Positions 4,507 through 41,202 of a DNA stretch of 64,000 nt are shown in pieces (the stretch's first letter is position 1; each line of letters opens with the position of its first letter). Source of the stretch: an uncultured Bacilli bacterium (GTDB lineage Bacteria; Bacillota_I; Bacilli_A; RF39; UBA660). The stretch is from the NCBI GenBank assembly GCA_934168245.1, contig CAKPMY010000002.1, forward strand, positions 78,237 to 142,236, given 5' to 3'. The notes beneath the pieces are model-generated. The model was not told where the DNA came from, did not search any database, and was given only the letters and a program-made list of their open reading frames with translations. The position numbers and the translations under genes are program-made.

Positions 4507-5994
4507 CTAATTAAGATTCTCTTTATTTTTCTCTTTCATAACTATCGTACTACCAATCGCAATTACAAGTATTATTCCAAGTACAATATAAGCCGCTGAC
4601 ACTGTATCTGGATTAACTATTCTATTATATATTGCACTAACAGTAACTTTACCCTCTGGCATTATAAAAGTTCCATCACTATTTACTTCAATCTCATTAC
4701 CATTCTCATCTTTAACAATAATTCTTTTTAAACTATACCCTTCTTTAACTGTTACGTTTACTTTTACTACTTCTCCTGGATAAGCATCAAATTTAACACT
4801 AATCGTTCCTTCTTCAGTAGCCTCTTTTATTACCGGATAATTTAGATACATGTATTTAGCAAGCATTAAAGGCTCGCAAGATATTTGTGTCTCAATCTCT
4901 TTCCTTGGGGCAGCCCAATTATCAACAGTAGAAAATAATAAATAGCCATTTCGTTTTCCATCACTATCATAATTATTTGTAATTTTAAAAGCAATTCTTC
5001 CAGTAACTGGATAATTAACTTCATATACTTTTTTACCATTAAAGTCATACTTAAAAACAGCAGTCTTATCATTAATAATAGCTGTAATTATATAGCCATC
5101 ATACCCATTTGGTGTATAATCACTTATCACATCATAATATACAGAATTAATACTAGCATCTTCATATTGAGCACTAAATACTACATTACCATCTAAGTCT
5201 AGTTTTACGATAGACCCTAATGAAGCACCGTGATTATTTTTTTCACCAACCACTACAATTCCATCTATTTTACCATTTTTATCATAACTGAACTTAAAGT
5301 TCAAAATACTAAAGTCAATATTCTTCGTCCAAATAACATTACTAGCAGAACCATCAAATTTAATAACATTAGCACCACCACTATTAAAGACAGCAGAAAC
5401 TTGATTATTTTCTATATATTTCAATCCATCTGTTTTTATATAATCTTTTACATCTTTTTCCCAAACTACATTTCCCTTTAAATCAAACTTTGTCATAACC
5501 CAAGGAGAATTAATACTTAAATCGGAAGATGTAGTTAAAAATACTATCAAGTATCCATCATGTGTTCCAGTATTATCATAACTATTATATTTTAAATGAT
5601 AAGTATCAGATCCATTTCCACCATATTGTTTCTTAAAAATTGCTGTTCCAGAAGCATCATAAACAGTAACTAAAAGATCTGAAGTACCATTGACAGTATA
5701 TCCTTGGTTATTCGTAGCGGTTAATTGTTCAACAGTAATATTAGAATAATTATCTTTAATATTATAAACAATCTTATTATCAAGACTATGTTTTAATATA
5801 CCACCAGAATATGGAAATAAAAATCCATCGATTATTCCTTTATTATTATAACTAGGAAAAACACGCACATCATTAAAACATCCTTCTACTTTCTCATTAT
5901 ACGTAAGAGTTAAATTCAAAGCCTCAACTCCACTAGGAAAAAATAAAAATCCCATTAGGAATAACAAAATAAAAATGCTTTTTCTTATCTTCAT
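4507..5994 (-). CDS. Surface repeat protein, paralog A (signal peptide, beta-propeller-like NYDxxGxxDGY repeats, Ig-like domain, C-terminal TM anchor)
   Basis: N-terminal signal peptide MKIRKSIFILLFLMGFLFFPSGVEA. Repeated DGY/DxxGN motifs. The C-terminus VKFDAYPGEVVKVNVTVKEGYSLKRIIVKDENGNEIEV...SAAYIVLGIILVIAIGSTIVMKEKNKE is near-identical to the C-termini of the two paralogs upstream. Confidence 0.6.
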   Translation of the reverse strand: MKIRKSIFILLFLMGFLFFPSGVEALNLTLTYNEKVEGCFNDVRVFPSYNNKGIIDGFLFPYSGGILKHSLDNKIVYNIKDNYSNITVEQLTATNNQGYTVNGTSDLLVTVYDASGTAIFKKQYGGNGSDTYHLKYNSYDNTGTHDGYLIVFLTTSSDLSINSPWVMTKFDLKGNVVWEKDVKDYIKTDGLKYIENNQVSAVFNSGGANVIKFDGSASNVIWTKNIDFSILNFKFSYDKNGKIDGIVVVGEKNNHGASLGSIVKLDLDGNVVFSAQYEDASINSVYYDVISDYTPNGYDGYIITAIINDKTAVFKYDFNGKKVYEVNYPVTGRIAFKITNNYDSDGKRNGYLLFSTVDNWAAPRKEIETQISCEPLMLAKYMYLNYPVIKEATEEGTISVKFDAYPGEVVKVNVTVKEGYSLKRIIVKDENGNEIEVNSDGTFIMPEGKVTVSAIYNRIVNPDTVSAAYIVLGIILVIAIGSTIVMKEKNKENLN

Positions 5995-6077
5995 AACTAC
6001 ACCTCTCCTATCTTATAAAAAGATTATACCAAAATAATAGAAACTATCAAACCCTAAGTCTGATAATTTCTATTTAT

Positions 6078-7550
6078 TTATACTTTTTCTTTATTTTTCT
6101 CTCTCATAACTATCGTACTACCTATCGCAATTACAAGTATTATTCCAAGTACAATATAACAAGCAGAAACTGTATCTGGATTAACTATTCTATTATATAT
6201 TGCACTAACAGTAACTTTTCCCTCTGGCATTATAAATGTCCCATCACTATTTACTTCTATCTCATTACCATCCTCATCTTTAACGATAATTCTTTTTAAA
6301 CTATATCCTTCTTTAACTGTTACATTTATTTTAACTACCTCTCCTGGATAAGCATCAGATTTAACAGTAATAGTACCACCAACAACTTCTTTCTTAGCTA
6401 CCGGAAACATATCATATGTGTATTTTAAAACTCTATAATAGCAATGATCTTTTCTAGAGTATATTTCAGTATTACTATCATCTTTTCTACTCTCAATACC
6501 TCGTTCATATAACAAATAGCCATTTTTTCTTCCACTACTATCATAATTATTAAAAATTGAAAAATTAATATTACTACTATCAGAAATAGTTTTTTCATAA
6601 ACTTTAATTCCTTCATAATTATACTTTAAAAGAAGCGTTTTATTATCAGATGTTACAGCAATAACTACATAGCCATCATATGTACCATCAGGAAGATAAC
6701 TAGCCTTTCCATCAGTAAAATAAGAATAAACATCACTTTTGTCATAAACAGTTGAAAAAATAATATTACCATCTAAATCATACTTTATTATTATACCAGT
6801 ATCATTATTTGCTCCAACAAGTATAACTCCATCAAAATTACCATTTTTATCATAACTATAGTCAAAAGAATAAAGGTCAATATTTGTATTTTTTTCCCAA
6901 CTTTGACTAATAATTCCCTTTTTTTCAAGAGATGAATTTTTAATATAAAAAATAGAATCAACTTTATTATCAACTACATAATATAAATCTCCACTATAAT
7001 AATCATTGATGTTTTTTTTCCAAACCACACCACCATTCAAATCAAACTTTACCATAACATAACCAGGAATAACATCCAAGTCAGAAGAATCAGTTCTAAA
7101 TACTACAATATTGCCATCATTAATTCCAAAATCATTATACGACTTAAAAGAAGAAATATATTCATCTTCACCATTACCACCATACTGCTTAATAAAAAGT
7201 TTGTTACCGTCTTTATCATAACCAGTTATCAACAAATCAGAAGAACCAGCAATATTATATTCACTATCAACATTTGAATATATATCTTTAACCCAAATTC
7301 TACCCAAATTAGAATCATAGTATTTTTTATAAATAAGTTTATTGTCTAAACCATACTTTATGTTCGTATCACCATCAAGAAATAAAAAGCCATCTATAGA
7401 ACCAGTATTATCATAACTAGGTAGCATCGTAAAACCACATCCATTAGATGCACTATAAGAAAGAGTTAACTCTAGTGCATTCGTCTTACATGGAAACAAA
7501 ATAGTAATGACTAAAATAATTAAGATAAAAATACATCTTTTTAACTTCAT
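6078..7550 (-). CDS. Surface repeat protein, paralog B
   Basis: Same architecture as 4507..5994. The 3' ~300 nt are about 90% identical at DNA level. It has its own TTGATA-16-TATAAT promoter and a GGAGAGG RBS. Confidence 0.6.
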   Translation of the reverse strand: MKLKRCIFILIILVITILFPCKTNALELTLSYSASNGCGFTMLPSYDNTGSIDGFLFLDGDTNIKYGLDNKLIYKKYYDSNLGRIWVKDIYSNVDSEYNIAGSSDLLITGYDKDGNKLFIKQYGGNGEDEYISSFKSYNDFGINDGNIVVFRTDSSDLDVIPGYVMVKFDLNGGVVWKKNINDYYSGDLYYVVDNKVDSIFYIKNSSLEKKGIISQSWEKNTNIDLYSFDYSYDKNGNFDGVILVGANNDTGIIIKYDLDGNIIFSTVYDKSDVYSYFTDGKASYLPDGTYDGYVVIAVTSDNKTLLLKYNYEGIKVYEKTISDSSNINFSIFNNYDSSGRKNGYLLYERGIESRKDDSNTEIYSRKDHCYYRVLKYTYDMFPVAKKEVVGGTITVKSDAYPGEVVKINVTVKEGYSLKRIIVKDEDGNEIEVNSDGTFIMPEGKVTVSAIYNRIVNPDTVSACYIVLGIILVIAIGSTIVMREKNKEKV

Positions 7551-7637
7551 AACTACACCTCTCCTATCTTATAAAAATATTATATCAAAATAAAAAGAAT
7601 TATCAAATACCAACATTCAATAATTCTTCTTAATAAT

Positions 7638-9146
7638 CTACATATCTTTATTATCTTTTTGTTTAACAACAATCAAACTACCAACTGCAATCAATAGTAC
7701 TACTCCAAGCACCATATAAGCAGCAGATACTGTATCCGGATTAGTTATTCTTTTATATATCGCACTAACAGTAACTTTTCCTTCTGGCATTACAAAAGTT
7801 CCATCACTATTAACTTCTATTTCTTTACCAGTCTCATCTTTAACGATAATTCTCTTTAAACTATATCCTTCTTTAACTGTTACATTTACTTTAACTACTT
7901 CTCCTGGATAAGCATCAGACTTAACACTAATAATTCCTTCTTCACTATTCTCTTTTACTACGGGATAGTTATCATACGTATACTTTGCAACCATTAAATC
8001 TTCACAAATAGTAATATCATATGTATCTACTGACTCTTGAATCCTACTTGGAATAAAGTCCTGATTTGAATTAAAAAACATTAAATATCCATTTTGTTTT
8101 TTATTGACATCATAGTTGTTAAAAACTTTACCACCAAAAGTACCTTGAGAATAAACAATCTCCCAATTCTTCTTGCCAGTATAATCATATTTTAGAATTA
8201 CAGTTTTTCTTCCTTCAGCATCAGCAGTAACTCCCGTAACTATATATCCATCAAAACTTCCATCTGGCAAATAACTACTTATAACATCATAGTATATAGC
8301 CCAAGTATCAGTTTTATCATAACCACTTCTAAAAATTTCATTACCTTCAAAATCATATTTAATTATTTCTGCAGTGTCGCCATCAGACTTAACAAATCCA
8401 GCAACCACAAATCCGTCTATCTTACCATTCTTATCATAACTATAATTAATATTATTAATAGAAATTCCTGTATTTATATTTAAAACTGTTTCATTCGTAT
8501 TTACGTTAGTAATATATAGTACAGAATCATCAGGATTAGTAACAGAAAAAGCCGTTTTATTTTTTGTAAAAAGAAGAACATTTCTAGTAAACTCATTTAT
8601 ATTTTTTTCCCAACGAACATTACCATTTAAGTCAATCTTTAACATGAAGAAACTTAATGCATCTGTAAATTCTGAAGAATTAGTCAAGAAAAACACTAAA
8701 TATCCATCATGTACACCTTTATTGTTATATGACTTCATACCCATTATGCCATAATCAATACCATCACCGCCATATTGAGTTTTAAAAAGTCCACTGTCAT
8801 CATCATTATAAGCAGTAATTAAAAGATCGGCCTCACCTTCAACCATATATCCATCACTATTAGAAGCCCTAATCGTTGAAACATCAACAGTATATACATC
8901 TTTTTCTTTTCCATCATATACTATCTTATTATTAAGATCCTGTTTAGTAATACCATTACTATCTATATATAATAATCCATCAATTTCCCCATTATTATCA
9001 TAGCTTGGTAATACAGCCAAATCGTCAAAACACTTTTGTAACTTCTCATTATATGTAAGTTTTAAATCTAGTGCCTGAACTCTACTAGGAAAAACCAAAA
9101 CACCTACTAAAGCCAGCACAATAAAAATACTTTTTCTTATCTTCAT
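7638..9146 (-). CDS. Surface repeat protein, paralog C (start moved to the internal Met)
   Basis: The ORF as listed starts at 9275 and would overlap the upstream gene's stop. The Met at 9146 (MKIRKSIFIVLALVG...) matches the N-termini of the paralogs and is preceded by a GGAGAAG RBS. The C-terminus is shared with the paralogs. Confidence 0.6.
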   Translation of the reverse strand: MKIRKSIFIVLALVGVLVFPSRVQALDLKLTYNEKLQKCFDDLAVLPSYDNNGEIDGLLYIDSNGITKQDLNNKIVYDGKEKDVYTVDVSTIRASNSDGYMVEGEADLLITAYNDDDSGLFKTQYGGDGIDYGIMGMKSYNNKGVHDGYLVFFLTNSSEFTDALSFFMLKIDLNGNVRWEKNINEFTRNVLLFTKNKTAFSVTNPDDSVLYITNVNTNETVLNINTGISINNINYSYDKNGKIDGFVVAGFVKSDGDTAEIIKYDFEGNEIFRSGYDKTDTWAIYYDVISSYLPDGSFDGYIVTGVTADAEGRKTVILKYDYTGKKNWEIVYSQGTFGGKVFNNYDVNKKQNGYLMFFNSNQDFIPSRIQESVDTYDITICEDLMVAKYTYDNYPVVKENSEEGIISVKSDAYPGEVVKVNVTVKEGYSLKRIIVKDETGKEIEVNSDGTFVMPEGKVTVSAIYKRITNPDTVSAAYMVLGVVLLIAVGSLIVVKQKDNKDM

Positions 9147-9237
9147 AACCACACTTCTCCTATCTTCTACCATAATTATACCAAAACAAAAAAAATTATC
9201 AAACCCTAAGTCTGATAATTTTCTTTTTCTTATAAAT

Positions 9238-12200
9238 TTACCTATACGCCACAACATGATGTGTCTTTTTATCATTAATTAACTCTACCACATCACTCTT
9301 TTGTACACGACCATCTACCATAGTTTTCCTTTTCTTATCCTTATGAACCTCTATTTCATAAATGGTTTCCTTAAATTTATAAGTAATCTTAAATGTAGTC
9401 CAACAATCTGGAATACTAGGCTCTACTCTTAACGTATTACTCTTCTTCTTCATACCTAAAATATCTCTAATACCTACATTATAGAACCATCCAGAAGAAC
9501 CAGTATACCAAGTCCATCCAGCCTTACCAGCAAAGTTTTCATTAGAAGAGATATCTGCTGCAATTACATAAGGCTCTGCTCCATACTTCATAACCGCCGA
9601 ATTATTCAAAGTCCTATTAATTGGATTTATCATCTGATAATACTTATAAGCCTTATCAGTATATCCCATCTTAATTAAAGCCATAATATACCAACTAACC
9701 GCATGTGTATATTGACCTCCATTTTCTCTAATACCTTTAGGATAATTCATAATATATCCAGGATTATTTAATGACTTACTAAAAGCCGGATTAAGTAACT
9801 TAATAATATCATTATCTCTATCGACTAACTTCTCTTCTACTTCTTCAATTACTTTTAAACTTCTTTCCTCATCCGCAACTCCAGATATAACTGAAAAACT
9901 CTGAGAAATTAAATCAATCTTACATTCACTATTATCTTTACTACCTAACTTATCTCCATTATCAAAATATGCTCTTAAATAATAATCTTTATCCCAACCA
10001 TACTTATTCAAATTACTCTTCAATTCATCATTAAATTTAACATACGAAGAAACATCTAACGCTACATTATTCTCCTCTACCAAAGCAACAAACTTATCAA
10101 TTATATTATACAAGAAGAATCCTAACCAAACACTTTCTCCCTTACCTTTAATACCTACTCTATTCATTCCATCATTCCAGTCACCTCCACCCATTAATGG
10201 TAACTTATGACTACCTAAATTAGACATAGATAATTTTAAAGACTTCAAACAATGATTAAGAATCGTATCACTACTACTAGAATAACTAAAATTCATCGTC
10301 TTCTCATACTCATAAACACTAAGTAAACTACCCGTAACATAAGGAACTTTTTCCCCTAAAATATCCTTATCCCCAGTAACTTCAATATAATTAATAACAG
10401 CATATACTAGCCATAAAAAATCATCCTTATAACGACTTCTAAGTCCAAACTTACTATCTTCATGCCACCAATGTAGAACATCACCTTCTCTAAATTGATG
10501 TGCCGCATTACAAATAATCTGCTCTCTCGTAAACTCCGGTTTTACTAAAACTATATTCATAGCATCCTGTAACTGATCTCTATATCCAAAAGCCCCAGAT
10601 ACTTGATAAAAACCAGCTCTAGCCATAATTCTAGAAGAAATAGTCTGATACAAATACCAATTATTAATCATATAATCAAAACTCTTATCTGGACTTTGAA
10701 CCTTAATAGTACCAAGAGTCTCATTCCAATACTTCTTAACTTTATCAAAAGCCATATCAACAAAATTAAGATCACTATATTTTCTAACTAATCCTTCTCC
10801 TATACATTCACTTCTATCAGCAACCAACATAAATACTATAGTCTTCTCTTCCTTAGCCTTCAAACTAATCTTACTATTAATACTCTTAACTAAGATTCTA
10901 TCACTACACCAAGAACTAATCTTTTCATTACAAGACATATATACACATACATCACTATAATTAATACTATAAGCATTACGTAGTTTTAATAAATTATCTT
11001 CCTCCATATACTCAGATAAAATATGTCTAGCTGTCTTCTCTTCAAAATTACCAAACGTTGGATTAATCCAAAAACAAGTATCAACATCCTGCTTTTTATT
11101 AGTCTTATTACTTAACTTAACCAAATATAATTTTACTGGTTCATTAATACTAACAAACTCTGTAATTTCTTTTCTTAACTCCAAAGATTCACTCTCTAAA
11201 ATACTATATCCCATACCATGAGTACACTTATCAGATACAAATAACTTATCATTAAACTTAAATCCCTCAGACCTGTCATTAACAACTAAATCATTAGTCC
11301 AAGACGTAATCTTAAACTCCGAAGAATTTTCAAAATAAGTAAATCCAGCCCCATTATTAGTAATAACAGTTCCAAACTCACTATTCGCAATAACATTACT
11401 CCAAGGAACAGGTGTCTTATTATTATAAATAACATACTCTTCCCCATTATTTATAAATCCACCAAAGCCATTATCAAACTCATACTCTCCCCGTTTCTTT
11501 ATCGCAACATTCTCTTCATACTTTTTCTCTTCATAATTACTAATCTTATTATTCTTCTGTAACTCACTAACTGCAACACTCAAACTAATATGATCTCTTA
11601 CGATAAATCTAAGTCTAGGTACAACTCCAAATAAATTCATCTCTTCTCTAGATAAACCACTTCCATCTATTACTTTAATAATACCTGGAGTATGATAAAA
11701 ACTATTAACTGAATATATTCTATATATCTCATCATCAATCTCTTTATTAATAACATCTCTATACTCATCTTCATTATTAATAATAACTATATCTACAAAA
11801 ATAGAATTATTCTTATAATACTCAAATGCTTTAAGTATACTAAATACAAAAGATAAATCACTAATATCATTAATATCCACTAAAATAATTGGTCTATCTC
11901 CACTAATTCCAAACTTCCACAACCCAGTCTGTGATAAACTATTTCTTCTTAATAAATCCATTCTCTCTTCATTAACTGATATTTTAGTAGTCTGATATAA
12001 ATAATTAAGCATTATATTATAAAGCCTTAACTCATCCCCCATAAGATCCATACTCTTATTATTTACAACACTTGCTAAAGAAGCTACTCTAAATATTTTA
12101 TTAATATCTCTTTTATTATTATAAGCATTAATAATTTCATCTATTTGTTCAGTACTTCTTCCAAAACCAACAACCACATAAACCGTTACTTCTCCATTAG

Positions 12201-15200
12201 GAACTATCTCTATCTTATTTCTAATACTACTAATTGGATCCAAGTTATCCCCCACATAGTTACTAAGTTTTGTAGAAAGACTAACTGGATTACTAGTTGT
12301 ATAACCCCTACCAATAAATCTACTTCTCTCAGTCTCATAACTATATTTATCAACAGGATTATCAATAATCAATCTACTAACCATATAATTATTAATACTA
12401 GAGTCTCCTCTACTTTTTCTCTTCATTATAAGAGCATTATTCTTATTATCCCATTCACTAGAAATAAACATATTATTAAATACCCTATGTGAAACATCAT
12501 CCATATTCTCGGATAATATAACCTCAGTATAAGTAGTTAGTTCTAAATTCTTATTAACATTACTATTATTTCTAAAAGAAATCTTTCTAATCTCAGCATT
12601 ATGATATGGACTAACTACAATCTCTGTAGTAGTCGTAATTAACCCATCAGTTCTTAAATACTTAATCCTATCAGATGCAAAAACAACTTCATAATTATCA
12701 CTATTCTTATTAATTGGAGCATAAGTATTAGACCAAACATAATTAGTATCTACATCTTTTATATACATAAATATTCCATAGTCTTGTTCTGTAACCTTAC
12801 GATATCTATTTAATTGTAAAGTTCTATATCTAGAAAAACTATTACCTCGATCATTCATAAGTAAAGCATATTTCTTATTCGATAAAACAGACACTTCTGG
12901 CATATAAGAAATATAATTAAATGTTCTAATATCATTCTCTATTCTTTCTTTTCTATAATCATACTTTTTATACTTAGCCATCTTCATATCTATATCAGTC
13001 TTTATCTGTACTTTTTCTTTAAGTAATATATCAAAAGTTCTAACTAATACATTTTCCTGGAAATAGTTCTTTACTGCTCCTAGTTTCAAATAATTAACTA
13101 TTCCTGCTAAAATCATTCCCTGATGATGTGCAAAGTAAGCTGACACAACACCAGTATTATCATAGTCATATGATTCATATAACCCATATTTACCAAACAT
13201 TTCTAAGTCTCTAAATTTCTCTATATTAGACATTACTTCTCTTGGAAATAACTCTAAAGCCATTATTGATGCATATGGAGAAAGAACTATTCTATTATCT
13301 TTATCTTCTTTTGCTTTTAAATACGGAGTTGAAAAAGCCCTATATTTATAATTTAGTGAATTATCTAACTCATTATAAGCAGCCTCACTAATACCCCATG
13401 GCAACTTCTTATTTATTTTTTCTATATAATCCTTCTGACAAAAATAAGCAAACTGATATGACTCATCCATCAATGTATTAGGATAATTCTTTAAAAATAA
13501 TAGCGGCATAAAATACTCAAAAGAAGTACCAGACCAAGAAATAAGTCCTTTACGTCCTTTATATGTAGTTAAAGATTTATCAAGAGAAAACCAATGTTTA
13601 ACAGGAACATCTCCCTTACAAATTGCTAAATAACTAGTAAGTCTAGCCTCACTCGCAAACTTATTATAGTTATATATTGAAAGTCTTCCCTCACTATCAT
13701 CATATCCAATACTAAATACATTCTTCTTTGTATATAACTTTGAAAAGTCAGCTTTTTTAATTAAACTATCACATCTTTTAACTAAATCTATAAACCCATG
13801 ACTATTTAAAAACTCTCTACAAACAACCAAACTAGAAACAAAATTACCTGAATCTACTAAAGATACAAATCTTGGGCTAAGAACTTCCATAGTCAAAATA
13901 TTATACCAGTTATATAAATGTCCATTCCACTTTTCTAACTTCTCTACTGTATCTAAAATATTAGAAATTAATGTCCTAGCCTCATCTTTTGTAATAAACT
14001 CCATCTCACAAGATGAAACTATACTAACTAATGAATACCCTATCGCTGTAGGACTAGTTCTCTTATCTAACTTTTCTTCTCTATTTTCCTGATAATTATC
14101 TGGTATTAAATAATTATATTTACTACATAAATTATCTGAAAAATACATCCAAGTATCATAAGCCAACCTAGTAAGATTCTCTTCTACCTCACCACTAATA
14201 CTATTCTTAGGTTTAATATCTAAACTAACAAAGTATAAAACAAATGGTGCCGTAATAAACATACCCGCTACTACATAAGAAATATATGACTTAAATATAA
14301 CTCCTAAAATAATAAAAATAATACCAAAAATATAATTAACTATAAAACTCTTCAAATACCCAACTAAACTCTTATTTAACTTCTTACTTGCCTCTTCTGC
14401 TGTAGTCCAATTAAGTAAATTCTTATGTGATACAAAAAGTCTATATAAAGTTCTAAAAAAAGCATCCATATAAACCCCAGTATAAAAAGGTATATTAATA
14501 AAAGTAATATAAGCCCTATATAATAAACTACGTCCCCCTACTAATAAATTCTTATAGTACACTGTCTTATTTTTATTTTTAAATTTAACTTTACTATACA
14601 AGAAAAATATAATTGAAATAGCAATCTCTAAAACTACAAATAAAATCCAAAGTACTGACTTAGTCCCATTAAATGACATTGCCAAAAGTAATATAAGTAA
14701 TAAACTAGGCATTAAAAACATTCTAAGAATATTATCTAATATTTTTAATTTTCCAAGTAAATTTATTGGATTTTTTACTTTAAGATTTTTTTTATTTTTA
14801 ACAGTATTTAAAAGCCACCCAATAATTTGTGTATCTCCTCTAGCCCATCTATGTTGTCTAGATACATCTGTTAAAAAGTCAGATGGCGCATCATCTATCA
14901 ATTCTACATCTGAAACATATCCAACTCTTAAATAATTACCTTCTAATAAGTCATGTGACAAAATCAAATTATCTGGAAAGGTATCTCCAAGTATTTTATC
15001 AAAACACTCTAAATCATATATTCCCTTACCTATAAAATTCCCTTCTCCAAAGAAATCTTGATATGTATTAAAAAGTGTTGCTGAATAAGTATCAAATCCA
15101 CCTACTCCAGCAAATATCTGACTATATAAACTCTTATTAGTAGCCTCTATTGAAGAACTAACTCTTGGTTGCATAATCCCATATCCAGAAATTACCTTAG

Positions 15201-16878
15201 TCTTCTCTTTATTTAAAACTGGTCTATTTAAAGGATGTGCCATTGCTCCTATTAAGTTTAAAGCCGTACTTAAAACAAGTCTAGTATCAGTATCTAATGT
15301 AATAACATATTTAATACCTAACTCTTTTCCCTGTAATGTATTAATAAAGAAATTCTTTTTACTAAGATTATCATTCATCTTACCAAGTAATACTTTATTA
15401 AACTGAACTAGTGCCCCTCTTTTTCTCTCATATCCTAAGTAACACTCTTCACTCTCATTCCATACTCTTCTTCTATAAATAAAATGAAATAATTCCTTAC
15501 CATATTTTTTATTTAAAGAAGAAACTATTTTTTCTCCTGCTTCAACTAATTCTTGATCATACTCCTCGTCTTTCTTAGAAGAGGCTTTAACATCCCCTAA
15601 TAAAGTAAAATATAAATTATTAGACTTATTAATTAAATAAAATGTCTCTAATACATCAAACATCTCTTTAATTTTCTCTGTACTACTAATAATAGTTGGA
15701 ATTACTACCATCGTTGTAGCACTCTTATCTAATCCATTAGAAAAATTAATTTTAGGCATAACCGTAATTGGTAAAATCTTACTAAAAATAACATCTACAA
15801 TTTTTATCAATACCTGACTAACTGGAATTAATAGAATTAAAAATCCTAAAGCCCTAAGTCCAATAAAATATTTAGACAAGAAAAAACTAATAATAAAAGT
15901 TCCTAAACACATAAAAACTAAATAAAGAATTGTTCTTAGTTTATAATTTTTATTTTTAAATAAATAAAATCCAATATGCTTCTCTTCTTTTAAACTAATA
16001 CTATAAAGTTTACCAAGTAATTCTAATTCACTACATCTTTTCCCTCTAGCAAGTCTAACTATCTGTTCCCTATACATCATCTTTGTATCAACAGTCATAC
16101 TCTTATATACTTTATCCATAAGTAATAGTTTTTCTGTTGCTGAAATATTTTTAAATAGTTCTTCTTCATTAAGCTCAAATAATAGTTTTAAATCTCCAAA
16201 TATATTAGAAATCAAAATATTATTATCAATTCTCTCTTGAAAAAAATCATTAATAATTTCTTTTAAACTAACATTCTTTGCTTCTAATAATTCATTTATC
16301 TCTTTAAATATATAATTACTTCTATTACCAAGTTTTTTTATCTGACTATTAACTTCATAAATATAATACTGATTCTCAGTAATATTAAACTTTTCATCTA
16401 TAAAATCATTTAATGTTACTTCATTCTTATCACAACTATTAATAATTTTACTAACTTTATTTTTTATTAATAATTTATCTTTCTCATCTTCACTAAGTAA
16501 ATACAACTTCTCTGTATAAATAAAGATCAAAAGATATTTAATTGCTAAAATCTCTCTATATGAAAAATCATAACTCTCATTTCTTTGATATTTTTTTAAT
16601 TCGGAAACTAATGTTTTAAAAGGAATATTATAATTATTCGCAACTGCTATTTGTCTAAGACAATAGTATAAACTTTTGGTATTTTTTATTAATTTACGTA
16701 TTTCTCTTTTGTTATGAACAATATTTGTTTTATGCTCTACTAACAAATAAAAATTATCAATTATCCATTCATTGTTAATTCCTACGTATGTTGCTTGTTT
16801 TGTTTTTTCTATTAAATAATTATAATATTTATTTATTTTTTTGAAGTTTGTAAAGAAATTAAAATACGTATCGTTCAT
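9238..16878 (-). CDS. Cyclic beta-1,2-glucan synthase-like giant protein (2546 aa): N-terminal cytoplasmic region, TM segments, GT84-like glycosyltransferase, C-terminal GH94 glycoside-phosphorylase-like domain
   Basis: The processive GT motif QHRWARGD and the DTDTRL (DxD) region lie in the middle. The C-terminal region carries the GH94 signature FGYRDQLQD plus HWWHEDSKFGLRSRYKDD. Several TM helices cover roughly aa 300-900 (one example starts LGTFIISFFLSKYFIG...). The architecture is that of Cgs/NdvB/ChvB. Confidence 0.75.
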   Translation of the reverse strand: MNDTYFNFFTNFKKINKYYNYLIEKTKQATYVGINNEWIIDNFYLLVEHKTNIVHNKREIRKLIKNTKSLYYCLRQIAVANNYNIPFKTLVSELKKYQRNESYDFSYREILAIKYLLIFIYTEKLYLLSEDEKDKLLIKNKVSKIINSCDKNEVTLNDFIDEKFNITENQYYIYEVNSQIKKLGNRSNYIFKEINELLEAKNVSLKEIINDFFQERIDNNILISNIFGDLKLLFELNEEELFKNISATEKLLLMDKVYKSMTVDTKMMYREQIVRLARGKRCSELELLGKLYSISLKEEKHIGFYLFKNKNYKLRTILYLVFMCLGTFIISFFLSKYFIGLRALGFLILLIPVSQVLIKIVDVIFSKILPITVMPKINFSNGLDKSATTMVVIPTIISSTEKIKEMFDVLETFYLINKSNNLYFTLLGDVKASSKKDEEYDQELVEAGEKIVSSLNKKYGKELFHFIYRRRVWNESEECYLGYERKRGALVQFNKVLLGKMNDNLSKKNFFINTLQGKELGIKYVITLDTDTRLVLSTALNLIGAMAHPLNRPVLNKEKTKVISGYGIMQPRVSSSIEATNKSLYSQIFAGVGGFDTYSATLFNTYQDFFGEGNFIGKGIYDLECFDKILGDTFPDNLILSHDLLEGNYLRVGYVSDVELIDDAPSDFLTDVSRQHRWARGDTQIIGWLLNTVKNKKNLKVKNPINLLGKLKILDNILRMFLMPSLLLILLLAMSFNGTKSVLWILFVVLEIAISIIFFLYSKVKFKNKNKTVYYKNLLVGGRSLLYRAYITFINIPFYTGVYMDAFFRTLYRLFVSHKNLLNWTTAEEASKKLNKSLVGYLKSFIVNYIFGIIFIILGVIFKSYISYVVAGMFITAPFVLYFVSLDIKPKNSISGEVEENLTRLAYDTWMYFSDNLCSKYNYLIPDNYQENREEKLDKRTSPTAIGYSLVSIVSSCEMEFITKDEARTLISNILDTVEKLEKWNGHLYNWYNILTMEVLSPRFVSLVDSGNFVSSLVVCREFLNSHGFIDLVKRCDSLIKKADFSKLYTKKNVFSIGYDDSEGRLSIYNYNKFASEARLTSYLAICKGDVPVKHWFSLDKSLTTYKGRKGLISWSGTSFEYFMPLLFLKNYPNTLMDESYQFAYFCQKDYIEKINKKLPWGISEAAYNELDNSLNYKYRAFSTPYLKAKEDKDNRIVLSPYASIMALELFPREVMSNIEKFRDLEMFGKYGLYESYDYDNTGVVSAYFAHHQGMILAGIVNYLKLGAVKNYFQENVLVRTFDILLKEKVQIKTDIDMKMAKYKKYDYRKERIENDIRTFNYISYMPEVSVLSNKKYALLMNDRGNSFSRYRTLQLNRYRKVTEQDYGIFMYIKDVDTNYVWSNTYAPINKNSDNYEVVFASDRIKYLRTDGLITTTTEIVVSPYHNAEIRKISFRNNSNVNKNLELTTYTEVILSENMDDVSHRVFNNMFISSEWDNKNNALIMKRKSRGDSSINNYMVSRLIIDNPVDKYSYETERSRFIGRGYTTSNPVSLSTKLSNYVGDNLDPISSIRNKIEIVPNGEVTVYVVVGFGRSTEQIDEIINAYNNKRDINKIFRVASLASVVNNKSMDLMGDELRLYNIMLNYLYQTTKISVNEERMDLLRRNSLSQTGLWKFGISGDRPIILVDINDISDLSFVFSILKAFEYYKNNSIFVDIVIINNEDEYRDVINKEIDDEIYRIYSVNSFYHTPGIIKVIDGSGLSREEMNLFGVVPRLRFIVRDHISLSVAVSELQKNNKISNYEEKKYEENVAIKKRGEYEFDNGFGGFINNGEEYVIYNNKTPVPWSNVIANSEFGTVITNNGAGFTYFENSSEFKITSWTNDLVVNDRSEGFKFNDKLFVSDKCTHGMGYSILESESLELRKEITEFVSINEPVKLYLVKLSNKTNKKQDVDTCFWINPTFGNFEEKTARHILSEYMEEDNLLKLRNAYSINYSDVCVYMSCNEKISSWCSDRILVKSINSKISLKAKEEKTIVFMLVADRSECIGEGLVRKYSDLNFVDMAFDKVKKYWNETLGTIKVQSPDKSFDYMINNWYLYQTISSRIMARAGFYQVSGAFGYRDQLQDAMNIVLVKPEFTREQIICNAAHQFREGDVLHWWHEDSKFGLRSRYKDDFLWLVYAVINYIEVTGDKDILGEKVPYVTGSLLSVYEYEKTMNFSYSSSSDTILNHCLKSLKLSMSNLGSHKLPLMGGGDWNDGMNRVGIKGKGESVWLGFFLYNIIDKFVALVEENNVALDVSSYVKFNDELKSNLNKYGWDKDYYLRAYFDNGDKLGSKDNSECKIDLISQSFSVISGVADEERSLKVIEEVEEKLVDRDNDIIKLLNPAFSKSLNNPGYIMNYPKGIRENGGQYTHAVSWYIMALIKMGYTDKAYKYYQMINPINRTLNNSAVMKYGAEPYVIAADISSNENFAGKAGWTWYTGSSGWFYNVGIRDILGMKKKSNTLRVEPSIPDCWTTFKITYKFKETIYEIEVHKDKKRKTMVDGRVQKSDVVELINDKKTHHVVAYR

Positions 16879-16952
16879 GACATCAACTCTCCTATTTAAA
16901 TTATATCATAAATGATTGTAAATAGAATATCAAAATAAGTCGAAAAAGTCGT

Positions 16953-16979
16953 AAAAAAAAACCTTGTCTAAACAAGGTT
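16953..16979 (-). terminator. Rho-independent terminator after tRNA-Ser
   Basis: Hairpin AACCTTG-TCTAAA-CAAGGTT at 16960-16979. On the minus strand it is followed by T8 (plus-strand A-run 16953-16960). Confidence 0.6.
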
Positions 16980-16989: not shown

Positions 16990-17080
16990 TGGCGGAGTAG
17001 GAGAGATTTGAACTCTCGCGCCAGTTGCCCGACCTACACCCTTAGCAGGGGCGCCTCTTCAGCCTCTTGAGTACTACTCC
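16990..17080 (-). tRNA. tRNA-Ser (GCT)
   Basis: Reverse complement GGAGTAGTACTCAAGAGGCTGAAGAGGCGCCCCTGCTAAGGG...GGTTCAAATCTCTCCTACTCCGCCA. Anticodon loop CTGCTAA. Long variable arm. 91 nt with encoded CCA. Confidence 0.85.
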
Positions 17081-17107
17081 ATTTCCTCTTGTGCGTCCGC
17101 ATATATA

Positions 17108-17136
17108 ATATTACACGAATTACCCTTACTTGTCAA
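17108..17136 (-). promoter_or_regulatory. Sigma-A promoter for tRNA-Ser (TTGACA-17-TAATAT)
   Basis: The minus strand reads TTGACA agtaagggtaattcgtg TAATAT, about 20 nt upstream of the mature tRNA-Ser 5' end. Confidence 0.55.
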
Positions 17137-17137
17137 T

Positions 17138-17165
17138 AACAAAATAAAAGACCTTCGAAAAGGTC
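17138..17165 (-). terminator. Rho-independent terminator after the tRNA Ile-Asn-Glu operon
   Basis: Hairpin GACCTT-CGAA-AAGGTC at 17150-17165, followed on the minus strand by TTTTATTTT. Confidence 0.55.
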
Positions 17166-17201
17166 AAATAAAAATCCAACATGCTGGAATTATATTCAAT
17201 A

Positions 17202-17278
17202 TGGTGACGAGTACGGAATTCGAATCCGTGAATGCTGCCGTGAAAGGGCAGTGTGTTAAGCCACTTCACCAACTCGCC
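17202..17278 (-). tRNA. tRNA-Glu (TTC)
   Basis: Reverse complement GGCGAGTTGGTGAAGTGGCTTAACACACTGCCCTTTCACGGCAG...TTCGAATTCCGTACTCGTCACCA. Anticodon loop CTTTCAC. Confidence 0.8.
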
Positions 17279-17281
17279 ATA

Positions 17282-17358
17282 TGGCGCCCCAACTAGGACT
17301 TGAACCTAGGACCCCTTGATTAACAGTCAAGTGCTCTAACCGACTGAGCTATTGAGGC
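17282..17358 (-). tRNA. tRNA-Asn (GTT)
   Basis: Reverse complement GCCTCAATAGCTCAGTCGGTTAGAGCACTTGACTGTTAATCAAGGGGTCCTAGGTTCAAGTCCTAGTTGGGGCGCCA. Anticodon loop CTGTTAA. Confidence 0.85.
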
Positions 17359-17365
17359 AAATTAA

Positions 17366-17442
<77 letters not shown>

Positions 17443-35322: not shown

Positions 35323-36237
35323 ATCAAAAAAACTATTGGATTACCAAGAGCATTACTCTACTATTATGACAAAGACTTCTGGCAAGCCTTCTTTACTGAC
35401 CTAGGCTTCGATACAATTATAAGCTCCAAAAGTAACAAAAAAATCCTACAAAATGGCACAACTTTTGCCAATTCTGAAAGTTGTCTAGCCATAAAAATAT
35501 ATCTAGGTCATATCCTAGACTTAAAAGATAAATGTGACTATATTCTAGTACCCAGAATGTATTCAATAAAGAAAAATGAACAGGTTTGTACAAATTTCAA
35601 CTGCCTATACGATCTCGTAAACAATCTTTTCGACGTAAAAATATTAAACTACAATATCGACCTAACTAAAGGAAAAACTAAACTAATAGCCTTTCTAAAA
35701 CTAGGTGAAGACTTAGGTATATCATATATAGAAACCTACAATGCTTTTAAACGTGCCGAAAAAAAAGCGCAAGAACAAAGAAAAATCAATGAAGAAGCCC
35801 AGCGTCAACTCCTAGAAACAAGTAACCTAAAAATACTTCTTGCTGGCCACCCTTACAATTTATATGATGACCTAATCGGAAAAGCCATAACCGACTTTCT
35901 AACCCAAAATAACATTTCAGTTCTCTACAGTGACAAAATAGATAACACAATAATTGATACCGAGTGTCAACAACTATCAACAGACATTCACTGGACTCAT
36001 AGTAAAGAAGTAGTTGCCAGTATCAATTACTATCATGATAAAGTTGACGGAATCATTATAATATCTTCATTTCCATGTGGACCAGACTCCCTAAGTAATG
36101 AACTAGTAACCAGAAAAATAAAAAACATTCCTATCATTACTCTAGTATTTGAAGACCTAAACAGTGAGTCTGGCATCATCACTAGACTTGAAAGTTTTAT
36201 AGATATCCTAGAAAGGAGAAATCTATGTCAAAAATAA
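35323..36237 (+). CDS. 2-hydroxyacyl-CoA dehydratase/activase-associated DUF2229-like protein, N-terminal half. Homology begins at an ATC codon (35323); the first in-frame ATG is at 35557
   Basis: The frame is open from 35311 and encodes (I)KKTIGLPRALLYYYDKDFWQAFFTDLGFDTIISS..., the family-typical N-terminus (MKIGIPRALLYY...). A GAGGA RBS lies 9 nt upstream of ATC at 35323. The listed ORF from 35557 lacks 78 conserved residues. Confidence 0.5.
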   Translation: MKKTIGLPRALLYYYDKDFWQAFFTDLGFDTIISSKSNKKILQNGTTFANSESCLAIKIYLGHILDLKDKCDYILVPRMYSIKKNEQVCTNFNCLYDLVNNLFDVKILNYNIDLTKGKTKLIAFLKLGEDLGISYIETYNAFKRAEKKAQEQRKINEEAQRQLLETSNLKILLAGHPYNLYDDLIGKAITDFLTQNNISVLYSDKIDNTIIDTECQQLSTDIHWTHSKEVVASINYYHDKVDGIIIISSFPCGPDSLSNELVTRKIKNIPIITLVFEDLNSESGIITRLESFIDILERRNLCQK

Positions 36238-37292
36238 TTAGTTTTCCACATCTAGGTGACTACTATATCCCAATCGAAACCTTTTTAAAAAGAACAACTC
36301 ATTTAAAAGTTAAACCTTCTCCACCTATCACAAAAAAAACAATTGAACTCGGTGCCAAATATTCACCAGACTCAGTCTGTCTCCCATTCAAATACAACCT
36401 TGGTAACTTCATAGAATCTCTAAATCAAGGCGCAACCGTACTCTTTACTGCCGGTGGAGGTTGTCGTTACCGCTACTATGCCGAAGTAACCAAAACAATT
36501 CTAAAAGACCTAGGCTTTGACTTTGAATTTTACAATCTAATCGAAAATGGCAAACTAAATCTCCTAAAAGTCTATAAAAACTTTAAAAAACTAAATCCAA
36601 ACCTAAACTTAATCTATTTTATTCATCAACTACTATACACAGTCTTCTTCATCTGGCACATGGATAAAATTGACAAAATAATCAGAACAAGAATCGGTTT
36701 TGAAATTGAAAATAACTCCTTTCTAAAAATTAAAAATAAAATGCTAACATCCTTCAAAAAAACAAAATCCATTACCAAACTATCCTACCGCTATTTTAAA
36801 TACAAACACCTCATCAAAAAAATTCCTATCGCAAAACCAAAAAACTGTCTAAAAGTCGGTATAATTGGTGAACTATACACTGCCATGGAACCATTCGCAA
36901 CCTATTTTCTTGAAAAAGAATTGGCCAAAATGCATATTGAAATAAAAAGATACACCAATCTAAGTTACCTCCTTTGGCAAAAAAAATATCTAACACCTCA
37001 CATGTTAAAAGTAACAAAGCCCTACTGTAAATACACTCTAGGTGCTGACGGACTAGATAACGTTTACCGAACTATAAAACTCATAAATAAAAAATATGAC
37101 GGTATTATTCATACTAAACCATTTGGTTGTACCCCAGAAATAGGCGCCATTCCCATAATTCAAAAAATATGTAACGACCATGAAATGCCTATAATTTTCT
37201 TTTCATACGATGTTGAAACTTCCGATGAAGGAATAAAAACTAGATTAGAAGCCTTTGAAGACTTAATAAGAATAAGGAGAGATAAAAAATGA
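36225..37292 (+). CDS. 2-hydroxyacyl-CoA dehydratase/activase-associated protein, second subunit-like
   Basis: MSKIISFPHLGDYYIPIETFLKRTTHLKVKPSPPITKKTIELGAKYSPDSVCLPFKYNLGNFIESLNQGATVLFTAGGGCRYRYYAE resembles the conserved partner of BadF/BadG-type activases. It overlaps both the upstream and downstream genes, suggesting translational coupling. Confidence 0.55.
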   Translation: MSKIISFPHLGDYYIPIETFLKRTTHLKVKPSPPITKKTIELGAKYSPDSVCLPFKYNLGNFIESLNQGATVLFTAGGGCRYRYYAEVTKTILKDLGFDFEFYNLIENGKLNLLKVYKNFKKLNPNLNLIYFIHQLLYTVFFIWHMDKIDKIIRTRIGFEIENNSFLKIKNKMLTSFKKTKSITKLSYRYFKYKHLIKKIPIAKPKNCLKVGIIGELYTAMEPFATYFLEKELAKMHIEIKRYTNLSYLLWQKKYLTPHMLKVTKPYCKYTLGADGLDNVYRTIKLINKKYDGIIHTKPFGCTPEIGAIPIIQKICNDHEMPIIFFSYDVETSDEGIKTRLEAFEDLIRIRRDKK

Positions 37293-38239
37293 TTAAAGGT
37301 TACCTAGGAATTGATATTGGTTCAATATCTACAAAAGGAGTCATAATAGACAAAAATAACACCATTCTAGCAAGTACCTATCTATGGACTAAAGGAAATC
37401 CAATAAATGCCGTAAAAGAAGTCCTAAAAGATCTACAAACTCAAATAAAAAACAAAAATATAAAAATAGTTTCAGTCGGTACCACTGGTTCAGCCAGAAA
37501 ACTAATTGGCACTATGTTAAATGCCACAATCATAAAAAATGAAATCACTGCTCATGCTATTGGAACCTTATCAAGATATCCAAATATCAGAACCATTATC
37601 GAAATTGGAGGCCAAGACTCTAAAATAATTCTCATTAAAGATGGAATCGTAATAGACTATGCCATGAATACCTTGTGTGCCGCTGGTACAGGTGCTTTTT
37701 TAACTAGTCAGGCCAAACGTCTAGAGATTCCTATCGAAGAATTTGGCAAAATTGCCTTAACTAGTACCAATCCTGCCTCTATTGCTGCTAGATGCACAGT
37801 CTTTGCTGAAAGTGACTTAGTTCATAAAGCCCAACTAGGCTATGAAAAAAAAGATATAGTCGCTGGTCTTTGTCGAAGCATTGCCTTAAACTACCTAAAC
37901 AACGTTGCCAAAGGTAAAAAAATAGAAGACCCAATCATCTTTCAAGGTGGAGTATCTAAAAATATAGCCGTCAAAAAAGCCTTTGAAGACATTTTAAATA
38001 CCAAAATAATTACTGATAAAGACGGACATCTAATGGGTGCCCTAGGTGTAGCCATTCTCTCTAAAGAAAAAGAAGAAATAAACTTCTCCTTTAACATCAT
38101 TACCGATAGTTTTAAAACAACCAGTAAAAACTGTGAAAACTGTCCTAATAATTGTGAAATAATCTGTATCGAGAAAAATAACCATCTAATTGACTCTTGG
38201 GGCAATCGTTGTGAACGAGGCAAAGTAAAAACTTCTTAA
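37289..38239 (+). CDS. BadF/BadG/BcrA/BcrD-type ATPase (CoA-substrate-specific enzyme activase, HgdC-like) with Cys-rich C-terminus
   Basis: ASKHA-fold N-terminus LGIDIGSISTKGVIIDKNN. GTTGSAR and GGQDSK motifs. The C-terminus CENCPNNCEIICIEKN...WGNRCERG is a putative metal/FeS-binding region. Confidence 0.65.
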   Translation: MIKGYLGIDIGSISTKGVIIDKNNTILASTYLWTKGNPINAVKEVLKDLQTQIKNKNIKIVSVGTTGSARKLIGTMLNATIIKNEITAHAIGTLSRYPNIRTIIEIGGQDSKIILIKDGIVIDYAMNTLCAAGTGAFLTSQAKRLEIPIEEFGKIALTSTNPASIAARCTVFAESDLVHKAQLGYEKKDIVAGLCRSIALNYLNNVAKGKKIEDPIIFQGGVSKNIAVKKAFEDILNTKIITDKDGHLMGALGVAILSKEKEEINFSFNIITDSFKTTSKNCENCPNNCEIICIEKNNHLIDSWGNRCERGKVKTS

Positions 38240-39948: not shown

Positions 39949-40554
39949 CTACTTAACCTTATAAAATATTGAAATCACTTTAGCAAACTCATAAAGTATA
40001 ATATTACTTTTATTTATCGCAAAACCTTTACCTAAAGCCTTACCACCTATCGTAAGTGCCGCCACTATTGCTGCTATAGATAATCCCGTAAACAAGATAC
40101 TGAAATTAAACTTTTCCGCAACAACTGCCGCTATTGTCGTAGCCGCTGTACCAGAAATAATTCCACATACATCCCCGACTACATCACAACAAAAGTTAGA
40201 TACCTTAGAAGCATTTTTCTTAAACTTAACTGCCACATCTGCACCTTTAACTTTTCTAGAATTCATTGAATGAAAAACTTTTTCATCACTACTAGTAACC
40301 GCTACACCTACTATATCAAATAAAATACCAATGCCCACAAAGAGTAACGTTACAAGTATTCCACCAACTATTGATAATTTAGGTAAAGTAACCTGTGATA
40401 CATAAGAAAGTCCAAAGGATAATGTAAAGGCAATTATAATAATCTTAACAATCCATCTCATATCGGCTTTCTTTTTATTAATTCTTTCTTTTCTCTTAGT
40501 TTCAATAACTAATCCTTGAAATTCATCTTTTTCTAATTTCTTCTTACTATTCAT
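39949..40554 (-). CDS. Small four-TM membrane protein with DxxxD motif. Candidate OapA (OLE-associated protein A)
   Basis: 201 aa. Basic N-terminus, then four hydrophobic helices. CCDVVGDVCG contains DVVGD. RBS AGGAAAGGGT. It lies immediately downstream of the 600-nt ncRNA and is co-oriented with it. Confidence 0.5.
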   Translation of the reverse strand: MNSKKKLEKDEFQGLVIETKRKERINKKKADMRWIVKIIIIAFTLSFGLSYVSQVTLPKLSIVGGILVTLLFVGIGILFDIVGVAVTSSDEKVFHSMNSRKVKGADVAVKFKKNASKVSNFCCDVVGDVCGIISGTAATTIAAVVAEKFNFSILFTGLSIAAIVAALTIGGKALGKGFAINKSNIILYEFAKVISIFYKVK

Positions 40555-40599
40555 ATACCCTTTCCTATAGAAAAAATAGTATAAAATACTATTTTCAAT

Positions 40600-41196: not shown

Positions 41197-41202
41197 ATCC
41201 CT

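Follow-up and report, generated by a model that had tools for sequence, protein, structure and literature searches.

A probable synthase of cyclic beta-1,2-glucan in a single-membrane Bacilli lineage of the gut

Nearly all work on cyclic beta-1,2-glucans concerns Proteobacteria, in which they protect the periplasm against osmotic stress and take part in the interaction with hosts. The locus described here, in a 64-kb stretch of DNA from an uncultured gut Bacilli bacterium (hereafter, the window), raises the question of whether a giant reading frame, cgs, encodes a genuine synthase of these rings, and of what such an enzyme may do in a cell surrounded by one membrane. The contig was assembled from a gut metagenome of the Hadza and has ~94–96% identity to 'Mycoplasma sp. 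CAG:877'; the scaffolds of this clade measure 1.19–1.28 Mb, and its members live in the guts of humans, ruminants, rabbits, chickens and mice. The host is a wall-forming, single-membrane Bacilli lineage: the murF and ddl genes are found in the window and there is no evidence of an outer membrane, which agrees with the earlier note on this DNA, where a low-GC Firmicute had been proposed. As had also been read there, cgs is a single frame of 2546 codons; it is uninterrupted and has an ATG start. The local G+C content of 28% is equal to that of the surrounding genome and, since stop codons are frequent at this composition, a chance origin of a 7.6-kb open frame is ruled out.

We consider it very probable that the product is a genuine Cgs/NdvB/ChvB-type enzyme that works like the Cgs/ChvB protein of Agrobacterium tumefaciens (Atu; PDB 8RF0, 8RF9; Sedzicki et al. 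2024, PMC10901819), the orthologues of which are Brucella Cgs and Sinorhizobium NdvB. The two proteins match collinearly over the full length (E = 0, 1284 bits), with aligned stretches at residues 322–1020, 1034–1994 and 2001–2502 of the window protein and a weak one at 10–287, and they have the same domain order: an N-terminal domain (NTD), two membrane helices, the GT84 glycosyltransferase, four further membrane helices, the cyclization (CY) domain and the GH94 module (Table 1). Catalytic residues, the primer tyrosine, the six-helix anchor and the fold of the first 900 residues are all shared. The 8RF0 chain has 2818 residues, ~270 more than the window protein. The earlier note had proposed this architecture from the motifs QHRWARGD (aa 675–682), DxD (TLDTDT, 527–532) and FGYRDQLQD (2097–2105), all of which were located in the translation; the proposal is upheld by the collinear alignment, by the conservation of the three active sites and the primer tyrosine and by the modelled structure of the first 900 residues, which matches that of the Agrobacterium enzyme. 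Homologues of full length (2538–2557 aa) number more than 100. In a comparison of 45 homologues, which includes Clostridia sequences at 32–35% identity, the GT84 site (the Q of QxRW excepted), the primer tyrosine, the GH189 glutamate pair and the GH94 aspartate pair are invariant. A Bacillota homologue is already known, the CGS of Thermoanaerobacter italicus, whose biochemically characterised cyclization domain (TiCGS-Cy/Tg; PDB 8WY1) is the founding member of GH189; the work on it covered the isolated domain only (Tanaka et al. 2024, PMC10834661).

Table 1. Location of cgs, its predicted domains and the neighbouring features (nucleotide positions in the window).
Feature	Residues	Position	Strand	Basis or remark
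tRNA cluster Ile-GAT, Asn-GTT, Glu-TTC, Ser-GCT		16990..17442	-	ARAGORN, Rfam
Putative cgs transcription signals		16905..16979	-	consensus scan and sequence reading
cgs, complete frame	1–2546	9238..16878	-	ORF listing
All-helical N-terminal domain	1–312	15943..16878	-	counterpart of NTD scaffold
Membrane helices 1–2	~316–338, 342–364	15772..15942	-	hydropathy scan
GT84 glycosyltransferase domain	370–712	14743..15771	-	alignment to Atu
Membrane helices 3–6, with cytoplasmic loop between 4 and 5	713–888	14215..14742	-	hydropathy
Cyclization (CY) domain, GH189	889–1300	12979..14214	-	PDB 8wy1, Pfam Glycoamylase
C-terminal GH94-type phosphorylase (GP) module	1301–2546	9238..12978	-	Pfam
Three tandem surface-protein paralogs		7638–9275, 6078–7550, 4507–5994	-	directly downstream of cgs
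galE		44499–45530		TIGR01179

In the GT84 domain, the UDP-binding Asp D429, R485 and D529/D531 of the DxD motif align to D527, R586 and D624/D626 of the Agrobacterium enzyme, the catalytic base D643 to D739, and R677/W678/R680 of the QxRW motif to R773/W774/R776. Tyr598 (GGFDTY) is the counterpart of Y694, the autoglucosylated primer in the IF1-homology loop, and is predicted by this alignment to have the same role; the roles of the Atu residues come from the Agrobacterium structure work (PMC10901819). The likeness to the bacterial cellulose synthase BcsA (GT2; PDB 4P00), likewise a membrane-embedded processive glycosyltransferase whose GT-A fold carries the motifs D, DxD, D and QxRW, exists at the fold level only, and Cgs has neither a translocation channel nor a PilZ domain according to the Agrobacterium structure (PMC10901819).

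The glycosyltransferase is the part of the protein that escapes profile searches. The Pfam scan of the whole protein gave Glycoamylase, GH94 supersandwich and GH94 catalytic domain as the full set of matches, the NCBIfam scan matched zero models, and no glycosyltransferase family was recognised by either in residues 1–1072; the GT84 part was detectable solely by comparison with the solved structure. The domain-wise search suggested in the earlier note therefore returned the expected GH94 modules and not the expected GT domain. Because both libraries are blind to GT84, an outcome of GH94 modules only is a false negative in this case, and we reject the absence of a GT domain, since the silence reflects a gap in the libraries and the domain aligns to the solved structure. 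With the GT84 half unrecognised in this way and a homologue named 'glucoamylase family protein' in one source, such genes can be under-called in metagenome annotation.

The NTD is shorter than that of Agrobacterium, where the NTD scaffold holds the glucan primer, and its match to Atu residues 64–349 is collinear but weak (8.8 bits). An AF2 model of aa 1–900 (pLDDT 74 overall and >80 across most of aa 1–312) superposes on 8RF9 with a TM score of 0.71 over 1015 aligned columns, against 0.30 for BcsA, and this superposition of the whole fragment reveals the helical scaffold at the N-terminus despite the weak sequence similarity. The model has helices at aa 313–338 and 342–368, in agreement with hydropathy helices 1–2, while helices 3–6 (718–738, 741–763, 842–864 and 866–888 by hydropathy) align to the Atu membrane region. 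The six hydrophobic helices form a 2+2+2 pattern, the hydropathy scan showed no signal peptide, and the topology check proposed earlier places the helices in pairs with every soluble domain on the side of the N-terminus. This pairing, together with the enzyme's requirement for UDP-glucose and phosphate, leads us to infer that all soluble domains are cytoplasmic.

The CY domain matches the T. italicus domain with 320 bits (2e-94), and the Pfam Glycoamylase match covers aa 1073–1275. The acid/base E1077, E1121, the nucleophile E1165 and H1251/H1252 correspond to TiCGS E1356, E1400, E1442 and H1536/H1537 and are invariant. What the domain lacks is its helical insertion: residues 1020 to 1034 of the window protein, about 14 residues, span in the alignment ~141 residues of Atu (~1115 to 1256) and ~169 of the T. 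italicus chain (140 to 309), so that neither the ~120-residue four-helix insertion of Agrobacterium nor the ~170-residue one of the fellow Bacillota enzyme is present. In Agrobacterium the four-helix insertion mediates a dimer contact (PMC10901819). The gut Clostridia homologues are likewise devoid of it, and in a representative library, which carries no taxon names, matches of ~2400–2690 aa run unbroken across the insertion point and most longer ones break there; in this family of ~2900 clusters the compact, insertion-less forms look common. As the insertion is an accessory, non-catalytic feature, its absence leaves the membership in the Cgs family standing.

The GP module consists of a supersandwich domain (aa 1326–1571; PF06165, 6e-84) and a catalytic domain (aa 2050–2475; PF17167, 2e-112), in which D2101 and the catalytic acid D2236 correspond to Atu D2393 and D2528. 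Its C-terminal ~520 residues also align to soluble stand-alone catabolic enzymes with 210–260 bits and with the catalytic Asp conserved; in the window protein, however, it forms part of a fusion with a synthase, where its expected role is the control of chain length.

Homology to the characterised enzymes suggests both the chemistry and the size of the product. The GT84 domain would glucosylate its own Tyr598 from UDP-glucose and then lengthen a beta-1,2 chain on this primer; the GH94 module would phosphorolyse the non-reducing end, controlling the chain length and releasing glucose-1-phosphate; finally, the GH189 domain, with E1165 as the nucleophile and E1077 as the acid/base, would transfer the chain onto itself, which would free a ring of ~17–25 glucoses and regenerate the primer. 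With the enzyme anchored by its six helices at the cytoplasmic membrane face, the ring would be set free in the cytoplasm. At this point the parallel with Agrobacterium is left, since the window host has one membrane and no periplasm, and no fused ABC_membrane/ABC_tran exporter of the ChvA/NdvA/Cgt type and no dedicated modifying enzyme was detected in the 64-kb window, in which every ORF of at least 100 aa was annotated; neither an exporter nor modifying enzymes were seen beside cgs among the neighbours in 54 related loci. A GH3 gene near the corresponding block of one relative (L056) was considered as a beta-glucosidase and rejected as NagZ-like.

A different view of the activity would be that linear beta-1,2-glucan is what the enzyme produces or remodels, or that it serves mainly in the degradation of imported beta-1,2-glucooligosaccharides by phosphorolysis and disproportionation, and releases no rings, this failure being ascribed to the missing CY insertion and dimer contact. 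The isolated T. italicus domain does also disproportionate linear oligosaccharides, GH94 enzymes are reversible phosphorylases and the absence of an exporter nearby would fit such a role. The complete GT84 site and the invariant primer tyrosine would, however, be useless to a purely degradative enzyme, the insertion lies outside the catalytic barrel and is lacking in related glucanases as well, and the soluble domains are all cytoplasmic with no adjacent glucan uptake system. We leave this explanation a slim chance and retain cyclic glucan synthesis as the preferred function.

As to the fate of the ring, the literature search returned no report of cyclic beta-1,2-glucan produced in vivo by Bacillota, Gram-positives or this organism. 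Brucella cyclic glucan, for its part, is reported to act as a host immune modulator. It is conceivable, if rather unlikely, that the glucan of the window host leaves the cell by a non-ChvA route and has its function there, either as a cyclodextrin-like carrier that might capture host or dietary sterols and lipids for a biosynthetically poor organism or as a modulator of host immunity, and that this is why an entire clade of small-genome gut Bacilli retains a Cgs encoded by 7.6 kb.

The three surface-protein paralogs that had been noticed directly downstream of cgs are indeed there, and they may invite the idea of one functional unit, for example, a surface module that displays or binds the glucan. 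All three begin with a signal-peptide-like sequence, contain a Flg_new_2 domain and end in a hydrophobic anchor, and their mutual identity is 47–52%; the family has 193 homologues, no PDB relative was found for it, and a single-sequence AF2 model (pLDDT 42) was too poor for use. With its listed start, the first paralog would share 38 nt with the end of cgs. Its true start is probably Met44 (nt 9146), as the signal-peptide-like sequence begins there, downstream of a promoter-like site at 9202–9175. The paralogs thus begin 91 nt past cgs on the same strand with no terminator-like site between, and genes for proteins with dockerin and cohesin domains come after cgs in the genomes of two gut Clostridia. 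Nevertheless, a common unit is very unlikely: the promoter-like site before the first paralog is a strong one, the paralogs do not resemble the dockerin protein of the Clostridia in sequence, and the genes that occupy the slot between cgs and pgi are unrelated from one species to another. The synteny led us to reject the paralogs as conserved partners of cgs, since a gene of this kind is present there, in single copy, in the closest relatives alone (L001, L002, L056), and elsewhere the family adjoins a racemase and acyltransferases, far from cgs.

The tRNA cluster reported next to cgs has four genes, shares the strand of cgs and lies 111 nt upstream of its start codon; it is a neighbour outside the cgs system. 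Transcription of the synthase gene is likely governed by signals of its own: tRNA-Ser is followed by a terminator-like hairpin (16979–16960), a promoter-like TTGATA-17-TATGAT lies at 16933–16905 and an AGGAG ribosome-binding site precedes the ATG, all of these being pattern matches in a region where promoter-like sites are no more numerous than in shuffled sequences. The galE gene, earlier mentioned for UDP-glucose supply, is in the window (428 bits vs a cut-off of 262) at a distance of 28 kb, and was rejected as a conserved partner. Those neighbours that are conserved are housekeeping genes, namely a murF-like ligase, ddl, pgi, a PAP2 phosphatase and a Cof-type HAD protein. Pgi is an ordinary Gram-positive-type glucose-6-phosphate isomerase and was also rejected as a partner; its adjacency to cgs reflects general conservation of gene order, because the upstream synteny is conserved equally.

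The flanking order murF-ddl ... cgs-pgi-PAP2-HAD is kept across ~40 species-level genomes at 57–65% protein identity and, taken with the genome-like G+C content, it indicates vertical inheritance of cgs. The gene is intact in 44 of the 54 related species-level genomes and is cut by contig ends alone in 8 more; the possibility raised earlier that the frame is interrupted in other assemblies thus holds for two loci (L037 and L053) and fails for the large majority. An identical protein is encoded on 7 independent contigs, and dN/dS is 0.157 against the L056 ortholog: cgs is under purifying selection. The two interrupted frames, the fame of the family in Proteobacteria and the position of cgs, with a tRNA cluster on one side and a variable slot on the other, might suggest that the gene was recently acquired by horizontal transfer or is a decaying relic that no longer functions; in the face of this composition, gene order, integrity and selection, this is extremely unlikely.

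Gut Clostridia and a widespread clade of uncultured Bacilli of the gut possess a complete and strongly conserved synthase, which suggests that single-membrane commensals of the mammalian gut may be makers of cyclic beta-1,2-glucan rings as well. The compact, insertion-less form could serve as a convenient minimal enzyme for structural and biotechnological work. Should the product indeed be exported by a non-ChvA route and function outside the cell, this would amount, in single-membrane bacteria, to a physiological role and an export pathway for cyclic beta-1,2-glucans that are both new.

The giant minus-strand ORF that the earlier note had read as a Cgs-type gene (cgs) is an uninterrupted frame of 2546 codons with an ATG start, in which all three quoted motifs were found. 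It appears to have its own transcription and translation signals, in the form of pattern matches only: a terminator-like hairpin after tRNA-Ser, TTGATA-17-TATGAT and a putative AGGAG ribosome-binding site. Pfam matches are confined to the C-terminal 60% of the product; the GT84 half (aa 1-1072) matched no model in Pfam or NCBIfam, and the NCBIfam scan of the whole product gave zero matches. The earlier note had proposed to reject its reading if domain searches returned only GH94 modules and no GT domain. With Pfam and NCBIfam this test would wrongly reject the enzyme, and it is the comparison with solved structures that settles its identity. The cyclization domain of Thermoanaerobacter italicus CGS (8WY1) matches aa 890-1298 with 320 bits. 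For an AlphaFold2 model of residues 1-900 (26 homologues; pLDDT 74, pTM 0.68) the best PDB matches were three Agrobacterium Cgs entries (TM 0.64-0.71, E 1e-22 to 1e-25), the next, cellulose synthase BcsA, being far lower (TM 0.30), so that the N-terminal domain, despite its weak sequence similarity, belongs to the architecture of Agrobacterium Cgs. Automatic annotation of the family is inconsistent: for homologues (P0010 and P0098) one source gives the name 'glucoamylase family protein' and another 'cyclic beta-1,2-glucan synthetase'.

The residues picked out by mutagenesis and structure in PMC10901819 (Sedzicki et al.) and PMC10834661 (Tanaka et al.) were mapped onto the product, and an alignment of 45 homologues, down to 32-35% identity, shows no variation at any of them in the GT84, cyclization and phosphorylase domains. 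A hydropathy scan gives six membrane helices in pairs, arranged as in the six-helix anchor of Agrobacterium Cgs; all soluble domains would lie on the N-terminus side of the membrane. The structure matches, the invariant active sites, the anchor and the 1-900 model thus bear out the Cgs-type reading.

Features of the cgs product (aa) and of the window (nt). Atu, Agrobacterium tumefaciens Cgs, numbered as in chain 8RF0_A, which follows the paper (D624/D626, Y694, D739, R773, D2393, D2528); Ti, T. italicus CGS
Feature	Position	Counterpart or remark
cgs	9238..16878 (-)	
TLDTDT	aa 527-532	
QHRWARGD	aa 675-682	
FGYRDQLQD	aa 2097-2105	
Glycoamylase	aa 1073-1275	Pfam
GH94 supersandwich	aa 1326-1571	Pfam
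GH94 catalytic	aa 2050-2475	Pfam
GT84	D429	Atu D527
GT84	R485	Atu R586
GT84 (DxD)	D529/D531	Atu D624/D626
GT84 (primer Tyr)	Y598	Atu Y694
GT84 (catalytic base)	D643	Atu D739
GT84 (QxRW)	R677/W678/R680	Atu R773/W774/R776
Cyclization	E1077	Ti E1356 (acid/base)
Cyclization	E1121	Ti E1400
Cyclization	E1165	Ti E1442 (nucleophile)
Cyclization	H1251/H1252	Ti H1536/H1537
Phosphorylase	D2101	Atu D2393
Phosphorylase	D2236	Atu D2528
Membrane helices	aa 316-338/342-364, 718-738/741-763, 842-864/866-888	
~155-aa protein	cgs-pgi slot	loci L008, L011, L017, L018, L019, L026, L031, L033, L041, L048, L052, L054
galE	44499-45530	
OLE RNA	40596-41205 (-)	
201-aa membrane protein	39949-40554 (-)	
Hybrid kinase pair	53136-58390 (-)	
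Phosphoketolase	58513-60861	
Dehydratase-like trio	35557-38239 (+)	

Compared with the Agrobacterium chain 8RF0, which has 2818 residues, the product is shorter by about 270. The main deletion lies in the cyclization domain, where residues 1020-1034 take the place of a stretch of about 141 residues in the Agrobacterium enzyme and of about 169 in that of T. italicus. The missing stretch corresponds in Agrobacterium to a protruding four-helix motif that makes a dimer contact (PMC10901819), and in T. italicus to the 'insertion region', which related glucanases are without. When the N-terminal 1200 residues were searched against a library of 1.84 billion representatives (E<1e-30), 2930 clusters matched; those of about 2400-2690 aa align unbroken across the insertion point, while most of the longer ones are split there. 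The gut Clostridia homologues are without the helical insertion too, and the compact form is therefore probably a common variant and not a peculiarity of the gene in the window.

An identical product is encoded on a 94.7-kb Hadza gut metagenome contig that matches the window at 100%. DNA identity to 'Mycoplasma sp. CAG:877' is 96% in cgs; when all aligned segments are counted it is 94%. Two further gut genomes, one of them on a 1.19-Mb scaffold, share 92-95% identity in cgs and 90-92% over the aligned segments as a whole. Relatives of the neighbouring genes were found on contigs of 1.19 and 1.28 Mb, and these lengths, which may fall short of complete genomes, suggest a small genome. A MurF-like ligase and Ddl adjoin the locus, and the organism therefore makes peptidoglycan and is one of the uncultured Bacilli, not the wall-less mollicute that the name 'Mycoplasma' would imply.

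Taking one genome per species, we obtained 54 cgs loci, most of them from human, ruminant, rabbit, chicken and mouse gut at 57-65% identity, in genomes labelled Bacilli, Erysipelotrichaceae, Mycoplasmatota or Candidatus Faecimonas; gut Clostridia contributed six, at 32-35%. The frame is intact and full-length in 44 of the 54, cut by a contig end in eight and interrupted inside the contig in two (L037 and L053; longest frames 1685 and 1186 codons), where frameshift, assembly error or gene decay could be the cause. The order hydrolase, murF-like, ddl, cgs, pgi, PAP2, Cof-HAD is kept in about 40 of the 54 loci, the G+C content of cgs is that of the genome, and comparison with the 96% ortholog gives a dN/dS of 0.157. 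On these grounds cgs is an ancestral gene of the clade that selection has kept, and not a recent import.

On the surroundings of cgs, too, the earlier note was correct in all particulars. The gene is preceded by four tRNA genes in the same orientation, 111 nt away, three secreted, membrane-anchored surface-protein paralogs (4507-9275, minus strand) follow directly downstream, and galE is within the window. The slot between cgs and pgi, an ordinary glucose-6-phosphate isomerase gene, varies by species and may be empty or hold unrelated genes or, in 12 related genomes, a conserved cytoplasmic protein of about 155 aa (MNLQKDKYIIVEIIPTHS...), which does not occupy this slot in the window. Only the species of the window has three surface paralogs there; its close relatives (L001, L002 and L056; Cgs 94-97% identical) have a single copy, equivalent to the middle one, and in other genomes the family adjoins a racemase and acyltransferases. 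Each paralog has a signal peptide, an all-beta region of about 350 aa, an InlB B-repeat-like domain and a C-terminal anchor. The copies share 68-80% identity in the C-terminal 125 columns versus 40-44% elsewhere, a pattern which suggests that they duplicated recently and that their exposed part has diversified. This family is lineage-restricted (only 193 homologues) and has no solved structural relative. In all four gut Clostridia loci L044, L045, L046 and L051 an OmpR-type response regulator comes after cgs, and the partner histidine kinase was confirmed in both of those scanned for it, L044 and L045. The regulator is preceded by a dockerin protein of about 705 aa and a cohesin protein in two of the four (L045 and L051). 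The Clostridia locus may therefore be regulated, with no counterpart in the window.

The DNA around cgs has 26-33% G+C, and nearly every gene there is on the minus strand. Across positions 1-64000 each 2-kb step has a strongly negative GC skew (about -0.2 to -0.55) apart from 30-32 kb, where the genes are on the plus strand; the minus strand holds about 80% of the ORFs, an extreme strand bias in this lineage. A plus-strand island amid minus-strand genes encodes a DUF2229 activase-associated domain, an HGD-D-like component and a BcrAD/BadFG ATPase, resembling a 2-hydroxyacyl-CoA dehydratase set. An OLE (ornate large extremophilic) RNA is also present in the window, matching its model over the full length (positions 1-616/616, 375 bits), which merits attention in gut Bacilli that have a small genome and are not extremophiles. 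Next to it comes a membrane protein of four helices that matched nothing in Pfam or NCBIfam and would fit the OapA partner. Two adjoining hybrid histidine kinase/receiver proteins (1127 and 624 aa; ORF overlap 4 nt) neighbour a phosphoketolase, and about 500 residues past the receiver domain of the larger one had no Pfam match.

The architecture, residues, topology and selection are shown by the analysis itself; by homology, the chemistry and the glucan made would be those of the published model (PMC10901819, PMC10834661). Tyr598 would be autoglucosylated from UDP-glucose and a beta-1,2 chain extended on this primer, the GH94 module would trim the chain through phosphorolysis, and the GH189 domain would cyclise it, so that a ring of about 17-25 glucoses is set free in the cytoplasm. 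A fused ABC exporter of the ChvA/NdvA/Cgt type was found neither among the window ORFs of at least 100 aa scanned with Pfam nor adjoining cgs in related loci. The literature that we searched contains nothing on the fate of the ring in cells lacking a periplasm; T. italicus is given as Gram-negative in a review. The ring may be exported by a transporter, retained in the wall zone, released into the gut or used in the cytoplasm.

The cgs product genuinely belongs to an established enzyme family, one already known in Bacillota, and what is new is solely its membership from a little-studied gut lineage and its compact variant. What a cyclic glucan does in gut commensals with a single membrane, and how it is exported, is a real biological question, which sequence alone does not make tractable.
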